Positions 4,651 through 62,912 of a DNA stretch of 64,000 nucleotides are shown one piece after another (the first letter of the stretch is position 1; every line of letters begins with the position of its first letter). The DNA is from an uncultured Candidatus Saccharibacteria bacterium (GTDB lineage Bacteria; Patescibacteriota; Saccharimonadia; Saccharimonadales; EFPC-124). The notes beneath the pieces were generated by a model, which was not told where the DNA came from, made no database searches, and saw nothing but the letters and a program-made list of their open reading frames with translations. Where the stretch lies: positions 1,641 through 65,640 of the forward strand of contig CBDDBE010000001.1 of NCBI GenBank assembly GCA_965225085.1, in the 5' to 3' direction. The position numbers and the translations under genes are program-made.

Positions 4651-5700
4651 TTAATAACGACTGATCTTATTAAAGGTATACCCCGCCCGCAGCAGCATAG
4701 CGCCCATCACGGTTACGAGCGCGAAGAGTATGTAGGCGATCACACCTTCCATATACGGGCCGGCAAGCACTCTCAGTACATATAAATATATCGTTACAAC
4801 CACGATTGACCAAATCGCCTGATATAAAGTGTTGATTGGCGTTTTATAAAGATCAGGAACTAATTTGGCAGCCTTGGGGAAAGCCACTAACGACCAGATG
4901 GGCGTAACCATAATCCAGGCCCACATCATACCAGTGATGCGAATGACCATATCGACTCTTTGCTGTAACAAATCAGGAAAAAACCACGTAGCAGCCATAA
5001 GCGGAACCACCATCACAACAAAAGGTACGCTGGACGACCATATACCCTTAACCCCCACCAAACGTGCATATTTCATATCGCCCAAGTGAAACAAAGACGC
5101 TGCAACAAGGACGGGCAACGAGAACAACACGTTGACGAACTCCTGGTTGCGTAAGTCAAAAATCTCTAGAATGGGCTGCTCCAAAAGGCTAAGTCCCAGC
5201 AAGGTCACCCCACTGGCAATCAGTACAAACGCCTGACGAAGCGACGATCGGAACGAACCAAGCGCCGTCAGAAAAAACCACGCCCCACCCATGTGCAGCA
5301 ATGCGAATAACGTTGCGCCACCTATCAGAACCCGCTGTTCGATAGTCGTAACCGGCAGTCCAACCGCCAAGGCAGCGGCCGTTATAATAGCTATGCTCGT
5401 TACGACGTACAGCCGTATCTTGTCGCGCCCGGCACGAGTAGGCCTGAAGTGCTGTTCTAGCTGCAGGTCCAGGGACTCCGCAGTAAAGTAGCGCAGTGTC
5501 TCCTTGGTAGTCAGATACGCCTTAAGGCCCTTCTCTACTTCAGCCAGTATCACCGCGTCGTTGGCACTAAGTGGCATGCTTGGATTGACGCGCGCGGTCA
5601 CTCCGCGGAACGTGTCCAAAAGCGTATCAACCTCAGCCGGACGGGAGGTCAACGACGCTAAATACACAATACGATCAATCGCTGCTGAAGCAGGTTGCAT
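4651..5700 (-). CDS. hypothetical polytopic membrane protein
   Basis: 349 aa. A soluble N-terminal ~95 aa is followed by about 8 hydrophobic helices. Confidence 0.7.
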   Translation of the reverse strand: MQPASAAIDRIVYLASLTSRPAEVDTLLDTFRGVTARVNPSMPLSANDAVILAEVEKGLKAYLTTKETLRYFTAESLDLQLEQHFRPTRAGRDKIRLYVVTSIAIITAAALAVGLPVTTIEQRVLIGGATLFALLHMGGAWFFLTALGSFRSSLRQAFVLIASGVTLLGLSLLEQPILEIFDLRNQEFVNVLFSLPVLVAASLFHLGDMKYARLVGVKGIWSSSVPFVVMVVPLMAATWFFPDLLQQRVDMVIRITGMMWAWIMVTPIWSLVAFPKAAKLVPDLYKTPINTLYQAIWSIVVVTIYLYVLRVLAGPYMEGVIAYILFALVTVMGAMLLRAGYTFNKISRY

Positions 5701-9454: not shown

Positions 9455-10909
9455 ATGATTAGGCTCAAAGAACAAGGGTGGCTTACAACGATTGGATGTA
9501 CTCTACTGAGTGCTCTGTCCTTCTATCTATCGACGGGACTTGGGTCCATATGGGCTCTCGCGTGGGTAGCCCCTTTGCCCCTCCTCTGGCTTGCCTATGG
9601 CAAGCAGTCTTGGTGGCGCGTAGGACTAGCAACATTTTTGGCTTTTGGCATCGGCAACAGTGAATTTATCCGACCATTTCTGGGCACCGGCGCAGCAGCA
9701 ATAGGCGTTACATTTGGCGTCTTGGGCCTTGCTACTACAGCAGTTGCTGCTGTGCTTCTTTCCAGATGGGTGTATAGGCGTTCACACTGGATAGGGGCAT
9801 TACTATTCTTCCCGGCGCTATGGACAGCAGCTGAATACGCTACTTCACTAGTCTCGCCCAACGGCACAATTGGGTCATTCGCCTACACGCAGGTTGGCGC
9901 CCCCATACTCATACAGAGTGTAGCGCTTTTTGGCATATGGGGTATTACGTTCCTCATTTGTCTTTTTGCCAATAACCTTGCGTTATCTTTGCGCGATCGA
10001 AAACATGCCAAGTCGCTTGTCGTGATAATGGCCGTTGTGTTTCTGAGCAACCTTGGTCTTGGCATCTTCAGACTCAATACAAGCGCAGGCCAGACGTCAG
10101 CAGAGATAGCCGCCATCGCCAAAGATACCTTGACGCTGCGTGCAAGCTCTGGGCAAACGTGGACTGATGTTACAACTCAGTATGCAGCCGAAATTCATAG
10201 GGTCGCAGCGGCGCATCCAGGCCTTAAAGCTGTTGTATTACCCGAGAAACTCGCAATTCTGCAACCTGCCTGGCGAGCTGCGGCCCTCACCCCTCTCGCA
10301 AACGAAGCACGCGCCGATCGTGTGCGTATTGTCGCAGGGTTTGACGATGAGGTGCCTGGCGCCACTGGCCACAACATTGCCATAACCTTTGAGCCGGACG
10401 GCACCAGCCAAACCTATGCAAAACGGCACTTACTTACCGCTGAGTCTAGTAGCGATGAGGGCAGTTTGGCGCCAGGCTCAACCCCGGGCTTGCTCGGCGA
10501 CGGTACTTCTGTGGAGATTTGCAAAGATATGGACTTTCCTGATACGACCCGCAGTGATGTCGCAGGGCATGGTGTCGGGGTTATCTACGTGCCGGCCGAG
10601 GATTTCACGATAGATCATTGGATGCATGCCCGCATTGCTGTTGTGCGGGGCGTCGAGAATGGCTCTTCGGTCATACGATCTGCTCGCAAGGGTGAACAAA
10701 CAATTAGCGATAATCGTGGTCGGGTGATCGCACAGGGCATGAGCTCAACAGCTGCCTTTAGCTCTAGCGTTGCAACCGTACCAGTAGGCAGTGGCAACAC
10801 GCTATATGGCAAGCTTGGTGATATATTCGCCTGGACAAGCACGCTGCTTGCGATCGCCATTCTAGGCCTTAGCGCGCGTCCTTACCCAAAAACTCGCATG
10901 CACAAATAG
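9455..10909 (+). CDS. apolipoprotein N-acyltransferase-like protein (polytopic N-terminus plus CN-hydrolase domain)
   Basis: About 6-7 N-terminal TMs, then a carbon-nitrogen hydrolase region with a candidate E-K-C triad (VVLPEK, AKRHLL, VEICKDMDF), then a C-terminal TM. SD aaggagag. Confidence 0.7.
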   Translation: MIRLKEQGWLTTIGCTLLSALSFYLSTGLGSIWALAWVAPLPLLWLAYGKQSWWRVGLATFLAFGIGNSEFIRPFLGTGAAAIGVTFGVLGLATTAVAAVLLSRWVYRRSHWIGALLFFPALWTAAEYATSLVSPNGTIGSFAYTQVGAPILIQSVALFGIWGITFLICLFANNLALSLRDRKHAKSLVVIMAVVFLSNLGLGIFRLNTSAGQTSAEIAAIAKDTLTLRASSGQTWTDVTTQYAAEIHRVAAAHPGLKAVVLPEKLAILQPAWRAAALTPLANEARADRVRIVAGFDDEVPGATGHNIAITFEPDGTSQTYAKRHLLTAESSSDEGSLAPGSTPGLLGDGTSVEICKDMDFPDTTRSDVAGHGVGVIYVPAEDFTIDHWMHARIAVVRGVENGSSVIRSARKGEQTISDNRGRVIAQGMSSTAAFSSSVATVPVGSGNTLYGKLGDIFAWTSTLLAIAILGLSARPYPKTRMHK

Positions 10910-10952
10910 GGATTAGATCAGTTCGTCCTTTATAGCTTCAAAATAGCCAAAC

Positions 10953-12568: not shown

Positions 12569-14374
12569 TCAAAGCGTCGGTCGTAGCTGCACCTTGCTGG
12601 CGGACCAGTACAAAATGTTGTCGTAGCGGTCAGTCGGATCGGCTAGGTTGCGCGCCGAAAAGCTACTGACCCCTTTGGTTTGAATGTACGTCAGGCTCGG
12701 ACGATATAAGCCAATTGCCGGGGTATCAGCCAACCAGCGCTGGGTAAACGTGCGGTACTTGGCGGCCCGCAGAGCTGGATCGCTGCGCGAACGGGCGCTG
12801 TCCAGCGCGTCGTCGGCCTGGGCCGAGCGATAGTCAGAGAGGTTAAAGCCTCGATCATTTGCCTGCGAGGAATGCCAATAGGCGTACACGTCGGGGTCGG
12901 ACCCAATGGCGAGGTCGTAAACCAACACATCGTAGGCCCGGGGAATGATGATATTCTGCTGGATATCCTCGGGCTTTACCACCTGGGAGTCAAACGTCAC
13001 GCCGACTTTCGACCATTGATCCATGAGTGTCTGTGCGATGGCCGGGAAGTCGCCACTACTGAGCGTTGCCATTTGGAGCTTCAGCTTCTGGCCCAGGGCG
13101 TTCACGCGCTTTCCATCCGGCCCGGCTTTCCATCCGGCTGCATCCAGCAAGCTCTTGGCCTGAGCTACATCAGTGACAGATTGCTTAAGCCCAGGGTCGT
13201 ACCCTAGTTGCCCATTCAGAATCGGCCCAGTGACCGGCTGAACACGATTATGCAACTGCCGCAGGAGCGCATTCTGATCGGTTGCGAGTTCGAGCGCATT
13301 GCGAACCTTCGGATCCTTCAGCATCGGGCTGTCCATCTGGAAAAAGGCGTATACGGCATTGAACAAAGGCGAATCTGAACGCACGATGCCCTTTAGATCG
13401 TTTAGGCTCTCTAGCTGCTCGTTCTCTTGGTCGCTCATAGCTGCGACGTCCTGCGTACGGAATGCTCGCACGAGGGCATCGCTACTGGCATAGGCGTGAA
13501 GCTGAAAATGCGCGAGCTTTGGCGCGCCCAGGAAATAATCCGGGTTGGCGTCGAGACGAATAATCGACTGTGCATCGCTGCCCCCAATGGCGTGAATGTT
13601 CTGGAAAGTAAACGGGCCGCTCGTGACGCTTGGACTGCGGCTAAAGCTGTAGCTACGCAGCTGCGACGAGCGAACTTTGCCAAGTGTATGCTCGGGCAAA
13701 ATCCCAACCGTCAGCGCATTCAGAAACGGCGTATATGGGGCGGGCAGCGTAAAACGCACGGTATACGGATCGAGCTGCTCAACCGTAATATTGCGCCAAC
13801 TACTATACAGCTGGGAATGCGTATCGGCGTCCTTGATAGCGCCAAAGGTAAACACGACGTCTTTCGCCGTCACCGGCAAGCCATCGTTCCAACGGGCATC
13901 TTTGCGCAGCGCCATAGTGTAGGCCTTGCCACTGCCATCGACATTGTAATGATCAACCAACACCGGCTGCGGCGTGCCACGAGTATCCTCGTAGAACAAG
14001 CTGGCAAAAAGCAATCGGGCTGCCGATCGCTCGGCTGGCGTGCTGGCGAAGATAGGGTTGAGGTTGTCTGCCGCGCCGACCACGCCTTCGGTGTATGTCG
14101 TATTATCGGCCGGCACATCAGCGCTATAGAGTCGTGCAAACTGTGCATTCTGCCAAAAGATCGCGGCAATCAACGCAGCAATGACGAGCAGCCACGCACC
14201 AGCCATCCGCCGGACTTCCTGGAGGTTTTTCCAACGGCGAACGATAAATTTATTGGCGTGGCCTAAGGTCGCGCCTTCCAAACGGCGCAGTCGACCACGC
14301 AACTGTTCAGCGGAGGCCGGCGTTTCTTCCAGCCCGTCAAGGCCCGCGTCGTCGCTCACCCGTGCCTTCGCCAT
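12569..14374 (-). CDS. ABC transporter substrate-binding protein, family 5 (peptide/nickel type), N-terminal membrane anchor
   Basis: 601 aa. TM (AGAWLLVIAALIAAIFW) then an SBP_bac_5-like body (WNDGLPVTAKDVVFTF..., NPDYF...). No permease or ATPase gene is adjacent. Confidence 0.8.
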   Translation of the reverse strand: MAKARVSDDAGLDGLEETPASAEQLRGRLRRLEGATLGHANKFIVRRWKNLQEVRRMAGAWLLVIAALIAAIFWQNAQFARLYSADVPADNTTYTEGVVGAADNLNPIFASTPAERSAARLLFASLFYEDTRGTPQPVLVDHYNVDGSGKAYTMALRKDARWNDGLPVTAKDVVFTFGAIKDADTHSQLYSSWRNITVEQLDPYTVRFTLPAPYTPFLNALTVGILPEHTLGKVRSSQLRSYSFSRSPSVTSGPFTFQNIHAIGGSDAQSIIRLDANPDYFLGAPKLAHFQLHAYASSDALVRAFRTQDVAAMSDQENEQLESLNDLKGIVRSDSPLFNAVYAFFQMDSPMLKDPKVRNALELATDQNALLRQLHNRVQPVTGPILNGQLGYDPGLKQSVTDVAQAKSLLDAAGWKAGPDGKRVNALGQKLKLQMATLSSGDFPAIAQTLMDQWSKVGVTFDSQVVKPEDIQQNIIIPRAYDVLVYDLAIGSDPDVYAYWHSSQANDRGFNLSDYRSAQADDALDSARSRSDPALRAAKYRTFTQRWLADTPAIGLYRPSLTYIQTKGVSSFSARNLADPTDRYDNILYWSASKVQLRPTL

Positions 14375-14376
14375 CG

Positions 14377-14601
14377 TTATCCTATCAACAAGCCTGTAAT
14401 CAGCGAGCCGACAAACACAACAGACAATATAATGGTGGCTTCGAATAGGCTCTTGTCGGTACCTCGACGCGTGGTAAACAGTTCGCCCGAGCTACCAAAC
14501 CCCGCGCCTAGACTCGCACCGCGTGCCTGCGTGAGGATGCAGGCGACCATCAGTACGGCAGAGGTAATCGTGACAATACTCAGTATAGTGTGGCTATTCA
14601 T
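14377..14601 (-). CDS. secG: preprotein translocase subunit SecG
   Basis: 74 aa, two TMs flanking the G-rich loop GASLGAGFGSSGELFTTRRG, typical of SecG. Confidence 0.85.
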   Translation of the reverse strand: MNSHTILSIVTITSAVLMVACILTQARGASLGAGFGSSGELFTTRRGTDKSLFEATIILSVVFVGSLITGLLIG

Positions 14602-14984
14602 AATCTTTTTCCTGATTCGTTCAAGTCAAGTAGACTTGTTAGTACATAGTTTATCAAGCTAACAATCATACCAGCAAGTACCGCCGGCCAAAATCCAATC
14701 CGCAGCCCGCCAACCAAGTGCGCGGCGATCCACACCATAAAGCCATTCACAATCAGCGTAAACAACCCTAGCGTCAGCAAAATCGCCGGCAGCGACAGAA
14801 TGACGATGATTGGCTTTAGGATGACGTTTACCAGTGACAGCACCAAACCCGCCCAGAAAAACAGTACATAGCCTTGAGTCGGGTCGTACTCTACCCCATG
14901 CCCCACCAGCAAACGCACAGCCACCCACAGCCCGAGGCTATTGAGTATCCAGCGCAACAGAAAACGAAAAAATTGTCGTTGCAT
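14598..14984 (-). CDS. phage holin family 4 (4-TM, Phage_holin_4_2-like) membrane protein
   Basis: 128 aa and 4 TMs, with the pattern LNSLGLWVA...IKPIIVILSLPAILLTLGLFTLIVNGFMVW...LINYVL. Its stop overlaps the secG start (ATGA). Confidence 0.7.
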   Translation of the reverse strand: MQRQFFRFLLRWILNSLGLWVAVRLLVGHGVEYDPTQGYVLFFWAGLVLSLVNVILKPIIVILSLPAILLTLGLFTLIVNGFMVWIAAHLVGGLRIGFWPAVLAGMIVSLINYVLTSLLDLNESGKRL

Positions 14985-22201: not shown

Positions 22202-23173
22202 ATGCGCTTCAAGCGCTCCAAGCGCCTGATTGTTGGCGTCGTCGCCAGCTTGTCCCTGCTTCTCGGTTCACCGCTTCTGGCGGCGTGCGATAAGGGGACA
22301 ACGACCGTCGCGAACTGCGGCTACAAGATCGGCGACGGCAGCAAGGACGCCCAGGTTCACCAGGTGGTCTATCCCGGCCAGAGCATCGACATCGGCCAGG
22401 ATCAGAAGATGATGTACGTTCCGTGCAATTCGCGGAACTACATCACCAACGACGGCACTCAGCAGAACGCCAACGGCGAAACCATTGGCGATCGCAAGCC
22501 GCCGACCCTGGCCTTCACCAAGAGCGGCACGCCGATTCGAGTGTGGACCACTGTCGAGTGGACGCTCAACCAGTCCGATAAGGAGATGCGGGAGTTTTAC
22601 GCATTCTGCCTGAAGTACAACTGCGCCAGCGACAAGGACAAGGGCGGCGACGCCAACTCAAGCACACCTGGCTGGAACAGGATGCTGAGCGAGAACCTCG
22701 GTCCTGTAGTCGACGCTGACGCCATGGAGATCGCCCACAACCAGGTCGACGACAGCATCTGGCAGAAGCCAGATCCCGCTGCCTACAAGACCATGGGGGA
22801 CGCCATGACGCTCAAGATCAAGGCGCTTTTGCAGCAGCAGACCGGCGACACGGACGATCTGTTCTGCGGATCTGGCTCCTCTTGGCCGGACCCGACGAAG
22901 CCCGGCAGCGGTACGTTCAACTGTACTGCCCCGCGCGTGACCGTGAACCGTGTCGAACTCGACACCACGATCAAGACGGGGCCCGGCGCAATCGCCGCGA
23001 ACGCCGAGCGGCTGGAAGCAGCCAAGGCGCTCTACGGCGACAGTGCCAGCTTCTGGCTCGGCCTGCAGGACGCCATCAAGGAGTGCAAGGATGACAAAGT
23101 CCCTTGCATGATCAACCTGGGCGGCCCCGGATCACCGTCGCTGCCCTTGCCGACGGGCGTGCCCAGCAAGTAG
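22202..23173 (+). CDS. hypothetical lipoprotein
   Basis: Lipobox LLAAC after the signal peptide; Cys-rich 300-aa mature part; strongly G/C-ending codons. Confidence 0.65.
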   Translation: MRFKRSKRLIVGVVASLSLLLGSPLLAACDKGTTTVANCGYKIGDGSKDAQVHQVVYPGQSIDIGQDQKMMYVPCNSRNYITNDGTQQNANGETIGDRKPPTLAFTKSGTPIRVWTTVEWTLNQSDKEMREFYAFCLKYNCASDKDKGGDANSSTPGWNRMLSENLGPVVDADAMEIAHNQVDDSIWQKPDPAAYKTMGDAMTLKIKALLQQQTGDTDDLFCGSGSSWPDPTKPGSGTFNCTAPRVTVNRVELDTTIKTGPGAIAANAERLEAAKALYGDSASFWLGLQDAIKECKDDKVPCMINLGGPGSPSLPLPTGVPSK

Positions 23174-23186
23174 CACGCACGACGGA

Positions 23187-23223
23187 GGGAGCCACGCGTC
23201 GCCTTATCGCGACCGTGGCTCCC
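23187..23223 (+). terminator. 10-bp GC hairpin after the lipoprotein gene
   Basis: gggagccacg ... cgtggctccc, no U tract. Confidence 0.45.
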
Positions 23224-23241
23224 CAAACAAATGAACTTATT

Positions 23242-24403: not shown

Positions 24404-26179
24404 ATGTCCATCGTCCAAAAAACCATCCGGCTTTTCGTAAGCCACGCCGCACGATATCCGCGGCTACTCATTCCGCTGCTAATCGTCCTACCACTCAACA
24501 TACTTGTAGCAGACTTTTTGCTGCCGTTCATCACATCGCAGGTGCTGCAAAAGATTTCACAGGGTGCCTACGATCCACACGATTTGTGGGGTAGCTTTGG
24601 CGGACAATTACTGCTGTATGCCGGAGCCACACTGCTGAGCGGCGTGGCCGGTTGGCGATTAGCCGTCTGGCTGATCTGGCATTTGGAGCTGCGCGTAGTG
24701 CGCGACATATCTCAGCGTGTGTTTGATCACCTGCTGAGGATGAGCGCCAACTTCCATGCCAATCGCTTTGGTGGCTCGCTGGTTTCGCAGGCCAACAAGC
24801 TGGTTGGCAGCTACGTGCGGTTTACCGACGCGACCATCTTCAACCTCTATACGTTGGTTGTATCCATCGTAGCTACCATCATCATCCTTTCGCCGCGTGT
24901 ACCGATGTACTCGATAGCTCTGCTGGTCCTGACAACCATCTACATCCTCGGGACGATGTTCTTCAGCCGAGCAGTCCGCGATGCGAACACCAAGGAGTCG
25001 GAGGCGCAGAGCAAACAAACAGGCTTCCTGGCTGACAGCATCAGCAACGTCATGGCTATCAAGAGCTTTGCCGCCAACCGCACCGAAAGTGCCGGCTACT
25101 GGAAGGTTTCAACTGAGGTCAAAAACCTCGGGCAGCAATCCCTCCGCCGGACAACCCAGCGAGAGACATACGCCAGCATTATAACCAGCAGCATCTCCAT
25201 CTCGGCCATCACGCTTGCTATTGTGGGCGTGGGGGTATTCCATGCAAGTGTCGCAACAGTCTTCCTCGTCGTCAGCTACACCGGATCGATCGGCATGCGG
25301 CTTTGGGAATTCCAGAACGTCCTGCGACAATACAACCGCTCTTTCGGTGATGCCAGCGATATGATGAAGATCCTCGAGATTGAGCCCGAGGTCAAAGATC
25401 CCGAAACGCCAGAGCGCTCTCACATCGAAAATGGCGCCATTAGCTTCAACCACGTGCAGTTCACCCACGCCGGGTCTCAGGAGGGTGACACACTGTTCCG
25501 CGACCTGGACCTGCAGATTCAAGCCGGCGAAAAGGTCGGGCTGGTTGGACATTCTGGATCGGGCAAGACGACTCTGACGCGCCTGCTCCTTCGCTTCAGC
25601 GATATCGATGCCGGCGAGATTACCATAGACGACCAAAACATTGCGCACATCGCCCAGGATGATCTGCGTCGCAGCATCAGCTACGTTCCGCAGGAGCCGC
25701 TGCTATTTCACCGCAGCATCCGCGAAAACATCGCCTACGGCAAACCGGACGCAACCGACGCCGAGATCATCGAGGCTGCCCGCAAAGCTCATGCCGACGA
25801 GTTTGTCCAAAAGTTAACCGACAAATACGACACACTGGTCGGGGAACGCGGCGTCAAGCTCAGCGGCGGACAGCGCCAGCGCATCGCTATCGCCCGCGCT
25901 ATCCTAAAGGACGCGCCGATCCTTGTGCTAGACGAAGCAACCAGCGCCCTCGACTCCGAAAGCGAACGCTTGATCCAAAAGGCCCTAACCGAGCTGATGA
26001 AAAACCGCACCGCCATTGTCATTGCTCACCGGCTGAGTACGGTGCAGAAAATGGACCGCATTGTGGTGCTAGAGGAAGGGAATATCATCGAGGAAGGCAG
26101 CCACGGTGAGCTCGTCGAAGCCCAAGGCACATACGCACAACTATGGGCGCACCAGTCTGGCGGATTCATCGAAGAATAG
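24404..26179 (+). CDS. ABC transporter permease/ATP-binding protein (MsbA-like type I exporter)
   Basis: 6-TM domain plus NBD with Walker A GHSGSGKTT, signature LSGGQRQR and Walker B ILVLDEATSALD. Confidence 0.9.
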   Translation: MSIVQKTIRLFVSHAARYPRLLIPLLIVLPLNILVADFLLPFITSQVLQKISQGAYDPHDLWGSFGGQLLLYAGATLLSGVAGWRLAVWLIWHLELRVVRDISQRVFDHLLRMSANFHANRFGGSLVSQANKLVGSYVRFTDATIFNLYTLVVSIVATIIILSPRVPMYSIALLVLTTIYILGTMFFSRAVRDANTKESEAQSKQTGFLADSISNVMAIKSFAANRTESAGYWKVSTEVKNLGQQSLRRTTQRETYASIITSSISISAITLAIVGVGVFHASVATVFLVVSYTGSIGMRLWEFQNVLRQYNRSFGDASDMMKILEIEPEVKDPETPERSHIENGAISFNHVQFTHAGSQEGDTLFRDLDLQIQAGEKVGLVGHSGSGKTTLTRLLLRFSDIDAGEITIDDQNIAHIAQDDLRRSISYVPQEPLLFHRSIRENIAYGKPDATDAEIIEAARKAHADEFVQKLTDKYDTLVGERGVKLSGGQRQRIAIARAILKDAPILVLDEATSALDSESERLIQKALTELMKNRTAIVIAHRLSTVQKMDRIVVLEEGNIIEEGSHGELVEAQGTYAQLWAHQSGGFIEE

Positions 26180-40157: not shown

Positions 40158-41078
40158 GTGAGGAGCGTGCGCAGAAAAAACACCGCACCCATCACGGTCG
40201 TTGTAACCCATTCAAAGGATCCCGAATTGGGTTCGCTCTTGAGCTTCACGAGCAGGTCATTCATGGGGCACGCTATCGCCTTGTTGAGGTTCGCAAATGC
40301 CGTCAAGTCGGTAGACCCTCATCATCGCATCGATTGCGAGCTAGTTGGGACGACAATAACGATTCGTCGGCTACGGATTTTGCCGGACGCAGTACCGCTG
40401 ACCCTGGATGAAGTGTCCGCCGCGTTGCGCGCAGCAGTCCAGTCCCAAGGACTCAACTGGGAGCTCAAGTTTCGAGAAGTCACTGATCCGATCGCGACCG
40501 AGGATCCACGCGCCCAGGTGCAGCCGACACGCCCCTCCGCGGACAGGCGTCAGGCCAGGCTAAAGCCAGTTCCTACGCCCCAACCCGCAGCTCCACGGCA
40601 GGAACCTGAACGACCGCGACGCGAGCAGCCGGCTCGACAGCGACCGGAAGCGGTCCAACGTCCAGCACCATCACCGGCTCAACCGCAACAACCTGAGCGG
40701 CGGCTTCACGCGGTTCCGTCACCTCAGCCCGCGACTCCACCACGGCAGCCAAGCCAAGGTTCCGGCTGGAAGGTGCCTCGCAGGAGCCACGGGGTCAGGG
40801 TCTCCTTGGCGTACAGTCGCCTGCCGAGCGCCAGAAACGACATAGCATATCCCGCCATCGGCCTCAACGGCCCTAGGAGCGAAGACGGAATCGAACTCCG
40901 CAGGCTCTGTGCCGCCGCCGACTACGAGGTGACCTCGTCCGGCTATGGCGCCACGGTCATTGTCATGAAGCAATTGGCCGTAGGTGACTCCGCGAAGCGA
41001 GAGGCGCATCGAGTCCTCATGGCGTTTGTTGAGGAGCTTGCACTCCACTTCAACTGGAGGCTGAGCCTCGAGCGCTGA
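40158..41078 (+). CDS. hypothetical protein with a central Pro/Gln/Arg-rich linker
   Basis: SD gggagtgaggag. Two ~95-aa globular ends flank about 100 aa of PxxP-rich low complexity. An alternative GTG start lies at 40167. Confidence 0.55.
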   Translation: MRSVRRKNTAPITVVVTHSKDPELGSLLSFTSRSFMGHAIALLRFANAVKSVDPHHRIDCELVGTTITIRRLRILPDAVPLTLDEVSAALRAAVQSQGLNWELKFREVTDPIATEDPRAQVQPTRPSADRRQARLKPVPTPQPAAPRQEPERPRREQPARQRPEAVQRPAPSPAQPQQPERRLHAVPSPQPATPPRQPSQGSGWKVPRRSHGVRVSLAYSRLPSARNDIAYPAIGLNGPRSEDGIELRRLCAAADYEVTSSGYGATVIVMKQLAVGDSAKREAHRVLMAFVEELALHFNWRLSLER

Positions 41079-56657: not shown

Positions 56658-57752
56658 TTATACAACAATACCACCGCCGACCACCCGATCGCCGTCATAC
56701 AAAACAGCCGATTGCCCCGGTGTGAGCGCCCGTTCAGGCTCATCGAGCACTAGCTTTATCTCATCTCCAGTCGGCACGATTCGGCAACCGATCAGCGGCG
56801 CACGGTGACGCGTGCGGACTTGGTATTTCCTGCTTGCGTCCGGCGCATCGTTTATCCAATGTAACTGCCCCAGCGTCAACTCATGCCGCCACAACTGTTC
56901 GTCGTTGAGATCGGTGGTAACGTATACAATATTCTTCGCCATATCCTTGCCCGCCACATAAAACGGCAGCCCACCTCCCACATGTAAGCCTTGCCGCTGG
57001 CCGATAGTATAGAAAATCGCGCCGTCATGCTGGCCGATAGTCTCGCCTGTCTTCTTATCCACGATATCGCCCGGCCGAGCATCGACATAATTTTGTAAAA
57101 ACTCCTTGATGCCAATCTTCCCCACAAAGCAAATTCCCTGTGAATCCCTCTTTTCGGCCGTCACTAACCCGAGCTTGCGCGCTTCGTCGCGGACCTGCGG
57201 CTTGGTTAGATCGCCGATTGGCAATAGCGTTTTGCTAAGCGCTTCGTGAGTGACACGATACAGAAAATATGACTGGTCCTTGTTGGTATCGAGCCCTGCC
57301 AGCAATGTAGCATCGGCCGGGAGTGGCTCGCCGCCACTCGCAGGGTCATTCGATCGAACAATTCGAGCATAATGCCCCGTCGCAATCATATCCGCCCCAT
57401 CGGCCAGCGATGCCTTCAGGAACAGATCAAACTTAATCTCTTGATTGCACATAATATCAGGGTTCGGCGTTCGACCGGCCTGATACTCGGCAATCATGTA
57501 GTCCACGACTTGCTGCTTGTATTCCTTCTGAAAATCAAACACCTTGAACGGAATACCCAGCTGCACCGCGACTCGCTTAGCATCAGCCAAATCATCGGCC
57601 CACGGGCACACAAAGCCAGGCAAATCCGTCGCCCAGTTCTTCATGTACACCCCTGTTACTTGGTATCCTTCGCGCTTCAAAAGCGCCGCGGTCACCGAGC
57701 TATCCACACCGCCACTCATGCCGACATATACGTGTATAGCGCTCTTATCCAT
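56658..57752 (-). CDS. mnmA: tRNA 2-thiouridine(34) synthase MnmA
   Basis: PP-loop VGMSGGVDSSV, CNQEIKF, ATGHYAR, DQSYFL. Confidence 0.93.
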   Translation of the reverse strand: MDKSAIHVYVGMSGGVDSSVTAALLKREGYQVTGVYMKNWATDLPGFVCPWADDLADAKRVAVQLGIPFKVFDFQKEYKQQVVDYMIAEYQAGRTPNPDIMCNQEIKFDLFLKASLADGADMIATGHYARIVRSNDPASGGEPLPADATLLAGLDTNKDQSYFLYRVTHEALSKTLLPIGDLTKPQVRDEARKLGLVTAEKRDSQGICFVGKIGIKEFLQNYVDARPGDIVDKKTGETIGQHDGAIFYTIGQRQGLHVGGGLPFYVAGKDMAKNIVYVTTDLNDEQLWRHELTLGQLHWINDAPDASRKYQVRTRHRAPLIGCRIVPTGDEIKLVLDEPERALTPGQSAVLYDGDRVVGGGIVV

Positions 57753-59543: not shown

Positions 59544-59978
59544 CTATATTGTAGCAGCTGCGGCTGAAAGTTTGTGCCCTGTTGCAGGGTCTAGGCGGTA
59601 AACGTTCTGCATGACTTGCTGGCGGTACATGCGAGTGGCAATTGCCAAGTTACGCAGCTCCTCACCCTCGACAACCGTGTATGGCTGGCCGTCTTGCACT
59701 TTCAGGATGCCGTGTGGGTGCACTTCATAGCGCGTGGTCATTTGGCGAGGCTTACCAGATGCTTCGTCGATCCATTCCTCGTACCATATCCAGGTGTGAT
59801 CATCCAGGCAAAAGAACTCGCGGCGATGCTTCGCGGGTATTGGACCGAACACTTGTGAGCCCACTTTGGATTCCATACGAATAAGATCACGACTTGTGAG
59901 TTTACGCAGCCTGGACTTGAGCCGTGGATGCGGCTCTGTTCCGGTGATAAGTTTGACTGTTTTGCTCCAGATAGACAT
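59544..59978 (-). CDS. hypothetical protein
   Basis: 144-aa ORF starting 6 nt after... it lies immediately upstream of the desulfurase gene. No family recognised. Confidence 0.55.
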   Translation of the reverse strand: MSIWSKTVKLITGTEPHPRLKSRLRKLTSRDLIRMESKVGSQVFGPIPAKHRREFFCLDDHTWIWYEEWIDEASGKPRQMTTRYEVHPHGILKVQDGQPYTVVEGEELRNLAIATRMYRQQVMQNVYRLDPATGHKLSAAAATI

Positions 59979-59986
59979 AACGTTTC

Positions 59987-60316
59987 CTATGCCGCTAGGC
60001 TAACATCCTGCCGGGTTAGCCTAGCCTTGCGGACGTCCGATATTGCGATGCCATCGTCCAAAATCCCACGCAGCAACTCCCGCTCAGTCTCGAGCGCCTC
60101 AGCCTTCTGCGCTGCGGCCTCGACACCCTCCTGCCTTTGCTGGTCAAGCAGTTCATGCACCATACGAGTCTCGGCCTCGGCGCTAAGGGCTAGTTCCTCG
60201 GGGTCAGGCCTGCGCAGCTCGAACTCGGGATTGGCATGCAAAACATGCCGATCAGATGAAGTCTCGGGTGTAATGGCAGGGTCGTAGTTGGGTTGGGATT
60301 GGGATAGAAAATCCAT
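59987..60316 (-). CDS. hypothetical acidic coiled-coil-like protein
   Basis: 109-aa Glu/Leu-rich ORF, 8 nt upstream of the next gene. Confidence 0.5.
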   Translation of the reverse strand: MDFLSQSQPNYDPAITPETSSDRHVLHANPEFELRRPDPEELALSAEAETRMVHELLDQQRQEGVEAAAQKAEALETERELLRGILDDGIAISDVRKARLTRQDVSLAA

Positions 60317-60369: not shown

Positions 60370-61398
60370 TTATAGAGAAAAGAGGCGTCGCGCGTTCAAT
60401 ACTGTGTGGTGTGCTAGCTCATCAATGGGTTCCTGGCGAAGATCGCTCAAAAACTCAGCAACGAGCAACACTCGCGCAGGCTCGTTCACTTTACCACGGA
60501 GTGGCCTCGGTGTCAAGAAGGGTGCATCTGTTTCTAGCAGCAATCGGTCGAGCGGTATACGGCGCGCGACCTCGAGTTGCCAGTCGTTACCAGTGAAGGT
60601 CATGATGCCGTTCACTCCTATGAACAGCCCTCGCGTAAGCGCCTTGTCCAGGTTCTGCGTGGTGTCGGTAAAACTATGCAGCTCGCCCCTAACCCCTGTA
60701 TAGCTATCAAATATTGGCCAAAAGTCGTCAAATGCGTCACGGACATGGAAAATCATCGGCAAATCATACTCTAATGCCAGCTCTATCTGGTATCTCAGCG
60801 CTCGTTCTTGATCTTCCTTCGACGAATGACCATAAAAGTAATCAAGCCCGCATTCGCCGATGGCGACGATTTTGCCTTGGCGAGCAGTAACTTCCGAGCG
60901 CCAGCCGGGAGTGGCTCGCCGCGGGGCAGCGCCCGCTTCGCCCGCAGCTAGCGAGGACGAAGAAGGGGCGGACGGCGAGACGAGGCTCGCGGTGTCCTTG
61001 AGGAGCGAGGTTGGCAACGCTGGCTTGCGCAAGTCTTCGGCCGCGGGTCCTGCCTCCTCGTCCGCCCCTTCTTTTTCGATGAGTACATCAAAAAAGCGGG
61101 CGCTGCCCCGCGAGGAGTCACCCGTTTCCAATCGCGTGCTGCTCTCAGCTTCGACCAAACCACGAATCGCCTTGAGTGGTTCGGTTCCGTATTTGGCTTC
61201 ATGTGGATGCTGGCCCACGCTCGCCCAGCTATTCGGACGATTCATGACGAATTCAACCGCTCGACGGCTGTCATCCGCATCCGTCCCAACGCAAATCATC
61301 TGAGTAACGCCTGCCTCGCGACAATGCTGGTCTACCTCTGCTATATCCAGCGGATAATCAGCCGAATGAATATGGCAGTGCGTATCGATAAGCTGCAT
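60370..61398 (-). CDS. tatD: TatD family metal-dependent hydrolase with an ~88-aa internal insertion
   Basis: MQLIDTHCHI, GQHPHEA, AIGECGLDY, MIFHVRDA, HSFT and LLETDAPFL are TatD motifs. 342 aa against a typical ~255. The start overlaps the metG stop (TGATG). Confidence 0.85.
   Translation of the reverse strand: MQLIDTHCHIHSADYPLDIAEVDQHCREAGVTQMICVGTDADDSRRAVEFVMNRPNSWASVGQHPHEAKYGTEPLKAIRGLVEAESSTRLETGDSSRGSARFFDVLIEKEGADEEAGPAAEDLRKPALPTSLLKDTASLVSPSAPSSSSLAAGEAGAAPRRATPGWRSEVTARQGKIVAIGECGLDYFYGHSSKEDQERALRYQIELALEYDLPMIFHVRDAFDDFWPIFDSYTGVRGELHSFTDTTQNLDKALTRGLFIGVNGIMTFTGNDWQLEVARRIPLDRLLLETDAPFLTPRPLRGKVNEPARVLLVAEFLSDLRQEPIDELAHHTVLNARRLFSL
60912..61121. repeat. ~210-bp imperfect palindrome embedded in frame in tatD
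   Basis: Perfect arm segments 60923-60938 ggggcagcgcccgctt / 61094-61109 aagcgggcgctgcccc (16 bp) and 60960-60974 aagaaggggcggacg / 61059-61073 cgtccgccccttctt (15 bp). Both pairs share a symmetry centre near 61016. The flanks pair imperfectly. Confidence 0.65.
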
Positions 61399-62912
61399 CA
61401 GGCGCTGGCGGATGGATTCGGAACTTGCGGTGCAGCAGTAGCTGGTGGTTTGGGCTGGGCTGGGTCAGGCGTATGATTGTAGATCTTTGGGAACAAGACG
61501 CCTTTGTACGACGAAATATTGCCCTCGCCAAAGATCTTAGTAATAGCCTCGCTGGTGGTTGGCAGGAACGGCCACAGTAGTTGCGCAATTTGCAACAAAC
61601 CGCTCGCGGCTGTCGCCAAAATCTCCTGCAGATGCTGATCGTCGCCCTTCTTGGCAACTTCCCAAGGCTTGACCTCCTCCAGGTACACATTCAGCTCGCG
61701 AATCTTCATCCACAGGTGATCAAGCGAGCGGTCAAATCGCATTGACTTTAGTTCACCGTAAAATATCTGACTATCGTGTTTGGGCTTGGGCAGCTCACCG
61801 ATAACGCCGTTTTGGTAGCGGGTAATCATGCTGGCGACCCGCTGCACCAGATTGCCCAGCTCGTTGCCCAGCTCGTTGTTGTAGGCTAGCTCGAACTTCT
61901 CCCACGTAAAGTCGCCGTCCTCGATGGTCGGGATGTGGCGCAGGAAGAAGTATCGAAAGGCGTCCACCCCGTAAGCGTCGATCACCTGGATCGGGTCGAT
62001 CACATTACCAATGCTCTTGCTCATCTTGGCGCCACCGGTCAGAACGTGACCGTGCACCAGCAAAACCTTCTCGAGCGGCAAGTCAAGTGCAATAAGCATA
62101 GCTGGCCAGATTGCAGCATGAAAGCGCAGAATGTCCTTGCCAATGACATGGACATCGGCTGGCCAAAACTTCTGGAAGTTCTCACCGTCAGGATAGCCGA
62201 GTACGCTCACGTAATTGATGAGCGCCTCGAACCACACATACATGACGTGCTCAGAGTCGCCAGGCACGGGAATGCCCCAGCTGAGATGTTTGCGAGGCCG
62301 TGAGATGCTGATATCCTCGAGGCCTTTTTCGATCAGCTGCAGGATTTCGTGCTTGCGAAATTCCGGCACAATCTTTAGCTCGCCAGCGGTCAGCGCGTCC
62401 TTTATCTGGTCCCCAAAGGCGCTGAGCTTGAAGAAATAATTCTCTTCGCTGAGCTTTTGGTAGGGGCGTTTGTGAACGGGGCACTCGCCATTAGTCTCGG
62501 TCGCCTCGCGGGCAGTCACGAATGCTTCCTCGCCCGAGCAGTACCAGCCCTCGTACGTTGACTTGTAAATATACTTTTCTTGCAGCTGCGTCCAGATGAG
62601 CTGCGCAGCCTTTTCGTGGTGCTCGTCGGTCGTGCGAATGAAATCAGTGTAGCTAATGCCCAGCCGCTTCAAAAACTCGTGCCATGCCGGCACCACAGAA
62701 TCAGCATATTCTTTAGGTGATTTACCGGCTTCTTCGGCCTTGGCGGCGATCTTGGTGCCATGCTCGTCAGTGCCTACCTCGAAGAATACATCGTCGCCCA
62801 TCTGTCGATGATACCGCGCCAGGACGTCGCTAAGCATGTAGTCCATAGCGTGGCCGATGTGTGGTTTATCGTTGACGTATGGGATCGCCGTGGCGACATA
62901 AAATTTCTTCAT
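61398..62912 (-). CDS. metG: methionine--tRNA ligase
   Basis: HIGH (PHIGHA) and KMSKS motifs. 504 aa with a Pro/Ala-rich C-terminal tail. Confidence 0.94.
   Translation of the reverse strand: MKKFYVATAIPYVNDKPHIGHAMDYMLSDVLARYHRQMGDDVFFEVGTDEHGTKIAAKAEEAGKSPKEYADSVVPAWHEFLKRLGISYTDFIRTTDEHHEKAAQLIWTQLQEKYIYKSTYEGWYCSGEEAFVTAREATETNGECPVHKRPYQKLSEENYFFKLSAFGDQIKDALTAGELKIVPEFRKHEILQLIEKGLEDISISRPRKHLSWGIPVPGDSEHVMYVWFEALINYVSVLGYPDGENFQKFWPADVHVIGKDILRFHAAIWPAMLIALDLPLEKVLLVHGHVLTGGAKMSKSIGNVIDPIQVIDAYGVDAFRYFFLRHIPTIEDGDFTWEKFELAYNNELGNELGNLVQRVASMITRYQNGVIGELPKPKHDSQIFYGELKSMRFDRSLDHLWMKIRELNVYLEEVKPWEVAKKGDDQHLQEILATAASGLLQIAQLLWPFLPTTSEAITKIFGEGNISSYKGVLFPKIYNHTPDPAQPKPPATAAPQVPNPSASA

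Follow-up and report, generated by a model that had tools for sequence, protein, structure and literature searches.

The 64-kb stretch of an uncultured Candidatus Saccharibacteria bacterium analysed here (contig CBDDBE010000001.1; hereafter, the window) contains the gene tatD, which is lengthened in frame by about 270 nt that close orthologues lack. With a probability of roughly 0.75, this insert is a convergent doublet of small, non-autonomous, selfish hairpin repeats of an undescribed kind, translated and tolerated by the host protein and similar to the doublets of repetitive extragenic palindromes (REPs) known as REPINs and to the Rickettsia palindromic elements (RPEs). In the genomes sampled, members of the family come only from one clade of Ca. 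Saccharibacteria (Saccharimonadales, Candidate Phyla Radiation or CPR). A sequence-only reading of the same DNA had proposed one palindrome of ~210 bp, perhaps RPE-like selfish DNA. The nested inverted repeats and the RPE-like behaviour, that is, a palindromic repeat tolerated in frame, were borne out. On the other hand, the insert is not a single element but two ~81-nt units of different subfamilies, and it does not belong to the RPE family.

The tatD insertion as a doublet of inverted units

The features of the tatD region are as follows:

60370..61398, minus strand: tatD, TatD-family metal-dependent hydrolase of 342 aa, the host gene (open reading frame, ORF, and Pfam PF01026)
60874..61143, minus strand: complete insertion (~270 nt, ~90 aa), judged against empty-site orthologues; boundaries approximate
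61044..61124, minus strand: unit A, subfamily 1, sense to tatD (covariance model R1, motif matches, aligned copies)
60908..60989, plus strand: unit A', subfamily 2, antisense to tatD (covariance model R1, aligned copies)
60990..61043, no strand: spacer of 54 nt between the facing right ends of A and A' (R1 coordinates)
60860..61303, plus strand: antisense ORF of 147 aa (ORF list)

The profile PF01026 (TatD_DNase) matched TatD with E=5e-67, the match being split into two stretches at profile position ~80, and the metal-binding or catalytic residues H7, H9, E182, H218, H241 and D291 are invariant in the TatD alignment A2. The insertion corresponds to residues ~86–175 in the reading frame. The ~88 extra residues counted in the sequence-only reading were confirmed against insert-free orthologues, which are shorter by about 88–90 aa. 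The limits of the insertion were set from the segment lengths in the 120 closest TatD homologues and from the empty sites of orthologues such as L032 and L033, ~75–80% identical, in which ...LVGADRRH is joined directly to KIVAIGE. The homologues belong, where named, to Saccharimonadales/Ca. Saccharibacteria. The number of extra residues between the helix that follows GQHPHEA and the strand KIVAIGECGLD ranges among them from 0 to ~130; it is at least ~10 in 40 of the 120, and the remaining 80 have no insertion. Together with the empty sites, this confirms that the insertion is lineage-specific.

The symmetry reported earlier was verified, including the perfect 16-bp arms (60923–60938/61094–61109) and the perfect 15-bp arms (60960–60974/61059–61073) around a common centre near 61016. 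These arms belong to two longer inverted repeats with the same centre, one of 28 nt and 89% identity (60911–60938/61094–61121) and the other of 33 nt and 79% identity (60960–60992/61041–61073). Since the ungapped complementarity between the two halves is only 39%, the symmetry resides in matched blocks rather than in a uniform palindrome. The tatD inserts of L001, L003 and L005 share a core formed by GGGGCAGCRCCCGC, a T run, a variable hairpin, an A run and GAAGGGGCGGAC, and motif matches located the GGGGCAGCRCCCGC...GAAGGGGCGGAC core twice in the window, in opposite orientations. From this, and from the scores of covariance model R1, which was built from 25 copies, it follows that the presumed 210-bp palindrome consists of two convergent units plus a spacer.

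Unit A was matched by R1 at 61036–61133 (minus strand; 90.3 bits, E~1e-18). It has the stems P1 (CGGGT/ACCCG) and P2 (CTCCTCG/CGAGGAG), a central T-run/hairpin/A-run, and the blocks GGGGCAGCGCCCGC (61096–61109) and GAAGGGGCGGAC (61060–61071). Unit A' was matched at 60899–60997 (plus strand; 71.3 bits, E~1e-14), with P1 GGAGT/GCTCG, P2 CTCGCCG/CGGCGAG and blocks at 60923–60936 and 60962–60973. A rare G in the core block is common to both window copies. In the right loop, GACG is found in subfamily 2 only. The spacer sequence is not conserved in doublets at other loci. Once ~10–25 nt of flank at either end are added, the doublet makes up the entire ~270-nt insertion.

The insert region also stands out in composition and folding. 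The GC content of 60850–61049 is 68–75%, versus 55% for the window; the RNA fold of the region reaches -144.5 kcal/mol (z=-6.3, none of 200 shuffles being equally stable) and its DNA fold has z=-5.4 versus shuffles. After correction for GC, it is the top folding outlier of the 64 kb, level with one segment at 24626.

Concerning the antisense ORF 60860–61303, it exists as described, but nothing indicates a real gene. Copies of the element have on average 4.4 of the 6 frames open, versus ~3.2 in shuffles, and the mirror ORF is therefore a by-product of stop-poor, symmetric units. The enrichment in open frames is modest, and on this ground a designed all-frame ORF was rejected.

The AlphaFold2 model of TatD shows a TIM barrel with a predicted local distance difference test (pLDDT) above 90 for 234 residues, whereas residues 100–172 have pLDDT below 50 and lack secondary structure. 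The insert is placed between helix 73–91 and strand 177–186, and in this model it is predicted to form a disordered helix-to-strand loop, a placement consistent with the surface loop considered in the sequence-only reading. In TIM barrels, helix-to-strand loops lie on the face opposite the C-termini of the catalytic strands, and the insert would be expected on that face.

As a peptide, the insert is an orphan. When its 91 aa were compared by phmmer with 1.84 billion representatives, only the insert itself and one weak match to a repetitive protein of 4488 aa were found, and a protein-domain reading was rejected for this lack of relatives. The repetitive protein (P0121), the sole non-TatD match, aligns at residues ~1957–1990 with E=1e-5 in 8 weak stretches, and it is probably a low-complexity repeat protein. 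A six-frame composite query made of stop-free translations of ten copies gave nothing in a database of 5.8 billion proteins, a result uninformative about absence, with its 8,000 scored candidates probably swamped by low complexity.

A dispersed family with covarying stems

Copies of the element were found outside the window, in favour of the sequence-only reading. A two-part exact pattern searched in one genome per species (185,579 species) gave 7 matches, all in Ca. Saccharibacteria. A single metagenome-assembled genome (MAG) accounts for three of these, on 3 contigs, and the exact core is present in only 5 of the GTDB species representatives. A relaxed pattern added 18 loci from JGI metagenomes. 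In total, there are 29 unique copies, all in Ca. Saccharibacteria genomes or metagenome contigs, and R1 returned 30 strong matches plus additional diverged partner copies. Inside the 64-kb window, BLAST and R1 with filters off found no full copy beyond the two tatD units, only a weak remnant in mnmA. No match to the element, called family 1 below, was obtained in viral contigs, phage genomes or plasmids. Rfam has no family for it: even at E<=10 the region gave only sub-threshold, generic miRNA-hairpin matches, and over the whole window Rfam recognised just two tRNA-Leu genes.

The copies are spread, in both orientations, over intergenic DNA and no fewer than 7 unrelated housekeeping genes; about half of the 29 are in coding sequence. 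The host genes, called from open reading frames and confirmed by Pfam, and the other locations are:

TatD: four genomes, same site and orientation
tRNA-dihydrouridine synthase (Dus): sense, at a shared site in two genomes
RecJ: antisense, at a shared site in two genomes
MnmA: at a shared site in two genomes, sense in one and antisense in the other
Double-ABC ATPase
RNase HII-UPF0102 fusion (rnhB): in the linker
LigD: in the ligase/Prim-Pol linker
A protein of unknown identity
Intergenic or gene-end copies: about a dozen, among them copies upstream of recF and to either side of a DEAD-box helicase gene

Every intragenic copy keeps the frame of its host, has no stops in that frame and leaves the domains on either side intact; the copies sit in loops or inter-domain linkers.

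All 29 copies share a single architecture. The unit measures ~81 nt from P1 to P1' (~100–125 nt with flanks) and forms a rod-like, imperfect hairpin with conserved inverted termini (CGGGTGRC ... GRCAGGACCCG). In alignment A1 (25 copies), stems P1, P2 and P3 are separated by invariant asymmetric internal loops. Stem cells are paired in 96% of cases across the 25 copies, versus 37–55% when the partners are slid by 1–3 columns; eleven pairs show double changes, and no shuffle equals the observed covariation score. P1 switches from G-C to A-U in 9 copies. P2 has 7 bp, with 98% of its cells paired and with 3–5 Watson-Crick types at each of its five central pairs. P3 is formed by the T-run/variable hairpin/A-run, and its base covaries too. 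RNAalifold found the same stems independently, plus one extra covarying pair in P1. Pairing within the invariant blocks is outside the reach of covariation.

The conservation is at the DNA level rather than at the protein level. A first hint of DNA-level homology was that the insert 'GAAPAFLDVPIQKRRG' of homologue P0022 resembles 'GAAPAFLMYSSKKKG', the translation of the window insert in an alternative frame, and indeed the reading frame of the insert differs among tatD orthologues. Four of these orthologues were retrieved by protein similarity, so that their choice was not biased by the sequence of the element. The four-fold degenerate sites flanking the insert are only 33–53% identical among them, while the 58 non-variable nucleotides of unit A are 97–100% identical among subfamily-1 copies and 84–86% identical to the subfamily-2 copy. 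Unit A is not a passive relic. Block identity of this kind implies either a strong nucleotide-level constraint in situ or renewal, by re-insertion or by gene conversion from a genome-specific master. Renewal is favoured because P2 versions are shared within genomes. Thus, GGTCGG is common to L003, L014, L022a and L025, CCGGCG to L021, L022b, L029 and L030b, and AGTCGG-like versions to L007, L008 and L010, each within one MAG or sample.

Doublets are always convergent. Besides the window, they occur in L022 and L030, each of these three with a subfamily-1 unit facing a subfamily-2 unit, and in L021, L014 and L003/L005; the spacers between model matches are 12–38 nt in 5 doublets. In the tatD genes of L003 and L005 the inverted partner is a different one, module B, with the termini of the main element (CGGGTGG...GRCAGGACCCG), another interior and a 9-bp complementary stem GTCCAAAAG/CTTTTGGAC. 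As module B shares the termini but not the interior, the ends appear to define a superfamily, with module B as the partner in several doublets. A further component, module C, is a ~55-nt right extension on copies in unrelated genes, formed by GACCTACGTG, a variable hairpin and ACGACGGGAGCGG; like the main element, it has conserved flanks around a variable hairpin. These modules are located as follows:

Module B: L003 ~10440–10525; L005 ~10400–10480; L014 588–672; L021 4267–4347; L018 3841–3867
Module C: right flanks in L011, L013, L017 (3028–3074), L019, L026 and L009

The loops occupied by the element are also used by others. An unrelated palindromic family, family 2, is defined by GACGCCGCTCGC...CCCCGACTGT...GGGGGCGAGCGGCGTCAG and encodes the peptides RRSLPS..APTVLGG / SPKTVEIEEGGERRQ. 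In L034 and L035 it occupies the loop of tatD (z about -5 for L035), and in L007 and L008 it adjoins copies of family 1. A second hot spot for palindromic elements is the mnmA loop that follows GHYAR, with a doublet of module B and family 1 in L014, a subfamily-2 unit in L018 and half of a family-2 element in L034. The family-2 locations and the mnmA remnant of the window are:

Family 2: L035 324–427; L034 tatD 10001–10930; L034 mnmA 13533–14663; L007 113–188; L008 ~4812–4834
57282..57349, minus strand: collapsed subfamily-2 remnant within mnmA of the window (56658–57752, minus strand) (BLAST and R1)

The remnant lies in the mnmA loop where L014, L018 and L034 carry their elements. It is the third-best R1 match in the window (15.3 bits, E 0.17), and at positions 57316–57334 it reproduces, without mismatch, 19 nt comprising the left end and P2 arm of A' (BLAST 19/19, E=3e-4). 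It folds back as GAGTGGC-TCGCC-GCCACTC and adds ~10 residues to the protein (...ASGGEPLPAD...), the form that an internal deletion of a doublet would leave. In the ligD linker of L023 (~4881–5010), the sequence CCAACTGCCACCCCGT, a perfect reverse complement of the left terminus and P2 arm of the unit, lies 13 nt past the right end. It resembles an inverted partner that has been cut short, a stage between a complete doublet and a remnant of the mnmA type.

Known repeats, mobility and rival explanations

The element is closest to RPEs in behaviour and to REPINs and bacterial interspersed mosaic elements (BIMEs) in architecture, and it is a member of neither group. RPEs (Ogata et al. 2000/2002, summarised in PMC10969869) are described as hairpin repeats of ~100–150 bp, located in intergenic DNA and, unusually often, in frame within unrelated housekeeping genes; the in-frame fusions are described as compatible with the protein fold, and each RPE family as coding for a conserved peptide. 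The element shares with RPEs the hairpin form at a similar length, the in-frame location in unrelated housekeeping genes and the small-genome, host-dependent bacterium in which it lives. The analogy thus holds at the level of behaviour, given the copies elsewhere, the lineage-specific insertion and the placement in a disordered loop. It is not a member of an RPE family because sequence and phylum are different. Among the 185,579 species genomes the core occurs only in Ca. Saccharibacteria, a separation based on the core pattern. Other differences are the apparently far lower copy number, the invariant asymmetric loops, strongly covarying stems and convergent hetero-doublets, the re-use of tatD, mnmA, dus and recJ loops by different families in different genomes, and the peptide frame, which is not conserved here.

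REPs, and the REPINs and BIMEs that are associated with REP-associated tyrosine transposases (RAYTs), are imperfect palindromic units that form inverted doublets with a short spacer, giving a longer hairpin (PMC3116915, PMC3337134, PMC3733652); REPs are extragenic, their length is 20–40 nt, and one of their ends bears a conserved GTAG or CGTC tetranucleotide (PMC3733652). The element resembles REPINs and BIMEs in its inverted doublets, its two paired subtypes, the lack of a target-site duplication (TSD), the genome-specific 'population' of sequences and an apparently long-term persistence in the clade. In BIMEs, it is the Y and Z subtypes of REP that pair up. The element is nevertheless not a REP because it fails in size (unit of ~81 nt), in location (about half of the copies are intragenic) and in terminal tag, neither GTAG nor CGTC being present at a fixed terminal position across the aligned copies; its copy number also looks much lower. 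REPs go with a cognate RAYT gene in the same genome, often flanked by the repeats; the gene tables of the 8–20 kb around the copies showed no transposase.

Two more comparisons are informative. The ends of IS200/IS605 insertion sequences (IS) and other substrates of HUH enzymes (PMC6006769) are likewise recognised as folded single-stranded hairpins with imperfect, sequence-specific bulges and produce no TSD, but here a transposase gene is lacking, as are a defined cleavage tetranucleotide and an asymmetry of left and right ends around a cargo; the analogy is only mechanistic. Bacterial MITEs (miniature transposable elements with inverted repeats; Correia/NEMIS, ERIC, RUP and BOX; PMC10969869, PMC2229807) are also small, non-autonomous repeats, sometimes intragenic with open frames; however, terminal inverted repeats, TSDs and a cognate IS are typical of them, and here no TSD is seen and covariation spans the hairpin. 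In agreement with the sequence-only reading, which knew of no such element in this kind of genome, a full-text literature search gave no paper in which palindromic elements, MITEs or REPs are treated together with Saccharibacteria, Patescibacteria or CPR, except for mentions of CRISPR; the coverage of the search was incomplete and a prior description is possible.

With respect to mechanism, it seems reasonable to propose that the elements would multiply within genomes via a single-stranded, folded intermediate, recognised in trans by a structure-specific enzyme. The most likely candidate would be an HUH/Y1 transposase of RAYT or IS200/IS605 type, because of the lack of TSD and the conserved asymmetric loops; RAYT and IS200/IS605 provide the best analogy for mobilisation (PMC3116915, PMC3337134, PMC6006769). 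Only insertions in frame, stop-free and in a permissive surface loop would survive, and there they would simply be translated. Long doublets may be unstable and collapse, as the mnmA remnant of the window would illustrate. The element would be selfish, and neutral to slightly deleterious for TatD.

Several observations weigh against this reading. Neither the window nor the gene tables of the fetched loci (8–20 kb around copies) showed a transposase or any other mobilising gene, although no full Pfam annotation of the window was made for that purpose. A REPtron-like arrangement in L020, with two inverted copies around 1.4 kb, was considered and rejected, as the bracketed gene encodes the DEAD-box helicase and no transposase. 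The case for mobility comes from distribution alone, and that for translation of the insert from conservation of the frame. Copy number looks low compared with the hundreds reached by RPEs and REPINs: the exact core is present 1–3 times per MAG, one soil sample gave at least 10 copies, and the window has 2 and the remnant. Ascertainment explains part of the invariance that the core blocks show in copies found by pattern. Finally, the same site and orientation in four tatD orthologues, with near-perfect blocks, could mean functional constraint in situ.

This last point leads to the explanation by a structured nucleic-acid motif under selection at the level of the host, such as a site bound by a nucleoid, repair or RNA-processing factor, a terminator or an mRNA-stability hairpin, with spread being secondary and the DNA not purely selfish. 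It would account for the very strong covariation with invariant asymmetric loops, for blocks 97–100% conserved while neutral sites are saturated, and for the site and orientation kept in the tatD orthologues. As to a terminator, GCGGG-GCAGCA-CCCGC followed by the T run resembles a weak intrinsic one, and some intergenic copies lie just past genes (e.g., 57 nt after the stop of the L020 helicase). A terminator inside essential coding regions would be harmful, however, and copies in both orientations relative to host genes indicate no consistent role at the level of mRNA. Close relatives lack the unit at the same site, its place in these loops can be taken by unrelated palindromic families, and Rfam has no match. 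A host-level function is thus considered unlikely. So is, to a greater degree, a classical MITE, i.e., a deletion derivative of a DDE-type IS moved by cut-and-paste through the P1 terminal inverted repeats. The small size, the non-coding and dispersed character, the conserved inverted termini and their occurrence in module B around another interior are what such an origin predicts. Nevertheless, TSDs of 3–9 bp, sought at any offset up to 30 nt, were no more frequent than in permuted flanks, with the reservation that the true element boundaries are uncertain and short TSDs could be missed; 236 kb of loci revealed no parent IS, and the covariation runs along the whole rod rather than at the ends alone. 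We regard this origin as improbable.

It could also be supposed that the insert is an intervening sequence, an intron-like RNA or a mini-intein, and that the TatD protein lacks the extra 90 residues. Intervening sequences in rRNA genes are a known feature of CPR bacteria, and a hairpin as stable as this one is a possible substrate of RNase III. Yet the frame is kept free of stops in every intragenic copy, which would be needless if the insert were spliced out; Rfam gave no intron or ribozyme match even at E<=10; intein blocks are absent, the insert is too small for an intein and its frame varies; and cleavage of the mRNA without re-ligation would destroy the message. Removal is therefore very hard to credit. 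Local expansion of the loop at the protein level, or an assembly artefact of this contig, with incidental palindromy, is effectively refuted: disordered loops do expand in some lineages and assembly chimeras can yield palindromes, but the nucleotide-level identity holds across reading frames and unrelated genes, the same units occur at several loci in independent assemblies (NCBI, JGI, ENA, Logan), and the P0022 gene is on 11 contigs.

Going beyond the selfish-doublet reading of the tatD insert, a wider picture is offered tentatively, at somewhat less than even odds. Saccharibacteria may hold a superfamily of structured hairpin replicators with conserved termini, asymmetric loops and lineage-specific compensatory stems, forming populations as REPINs do and living largely in essential genes as RPEs do. 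The tatD, mnmA, dus and recJ loops would be repeatedly re-occupied across species. Either a structure-specific single-strand enzyme with a preference for certain sites would propagate the elements, or the motif would have gained a host function by which its 58 non-stem nucleotides stay 97–100% identical despite saturation at neutral sites.

Genomic setting and significance

The neighbourhood of tatD is conserved. The neighbouring gene and the two ORFs on the other side are:

61398..62912, minus strand: metG, upstream of tatD (ORF and Pfam)
59987..60316, minus strand: ORF of 109 aa directly downstream of tatD, without Pfam matches
59544..59978, minus strand: ORF of 144 aa, following the previous one, without Pfam matches

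The stop of metG and the start of tatD share a single base (61398 in both ORFs); in relatives, the overlap is 1–14 nt, or a small antisense ORF lies between the genes. These overlaps suggest translational coupling in some lineages. The order metG-tatD-hypothetical-hypothetical-aminotransferase-DUF218-mnmA is syntenic across the clade according to the gene tables of relatives. Genes of similar size occupy both positions downstream of tatD in every syntenic relative, and the two ORFs appear to encode conserved, clade-specific proteins.

Elsewhere in the window, other GC-rich or structured outliers (~17.1, 22.9, 24.6, 40.5 and 52.3–52.9 kb) contain no element matches, and Pfam was uninformative for them. 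Among these, 24626–24825 has a stable fold (z about -3.8) within an ABC-transporter gene, and the islands of 67–68% GC at 40451–40800 and 22851–23225 lie in ORFs without Pfam matches; none of the three is matched by the element model.

As to the significance of the tatD insert, Rickettsia is essentially the only textbook case in which palindromic selfish DNA has colonised essential genes in frame. An unrelated family in a second lineage of tiny-genome, host-dependent bacteria suggests that such colonisation is a general consequence of that lifestyle and not a rickettsial curiosity, the likely cause being weak selection together with few non-coding landing sites. The family offers a natural experiment, with covarying stems, empty and filled sites in close relatives, and hot-spot loops re-used by different families, that may be used to ask how such elements move, whether they target sites and how proteins absorb 30–130 disordered residues. 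There is also a practical side, since these inserts inflate and fragment domain matches, distort marker-gene alignments and phylogenies of the CPR and create spurious antisense ORFs, and a covariance model such as R1 can flag them.

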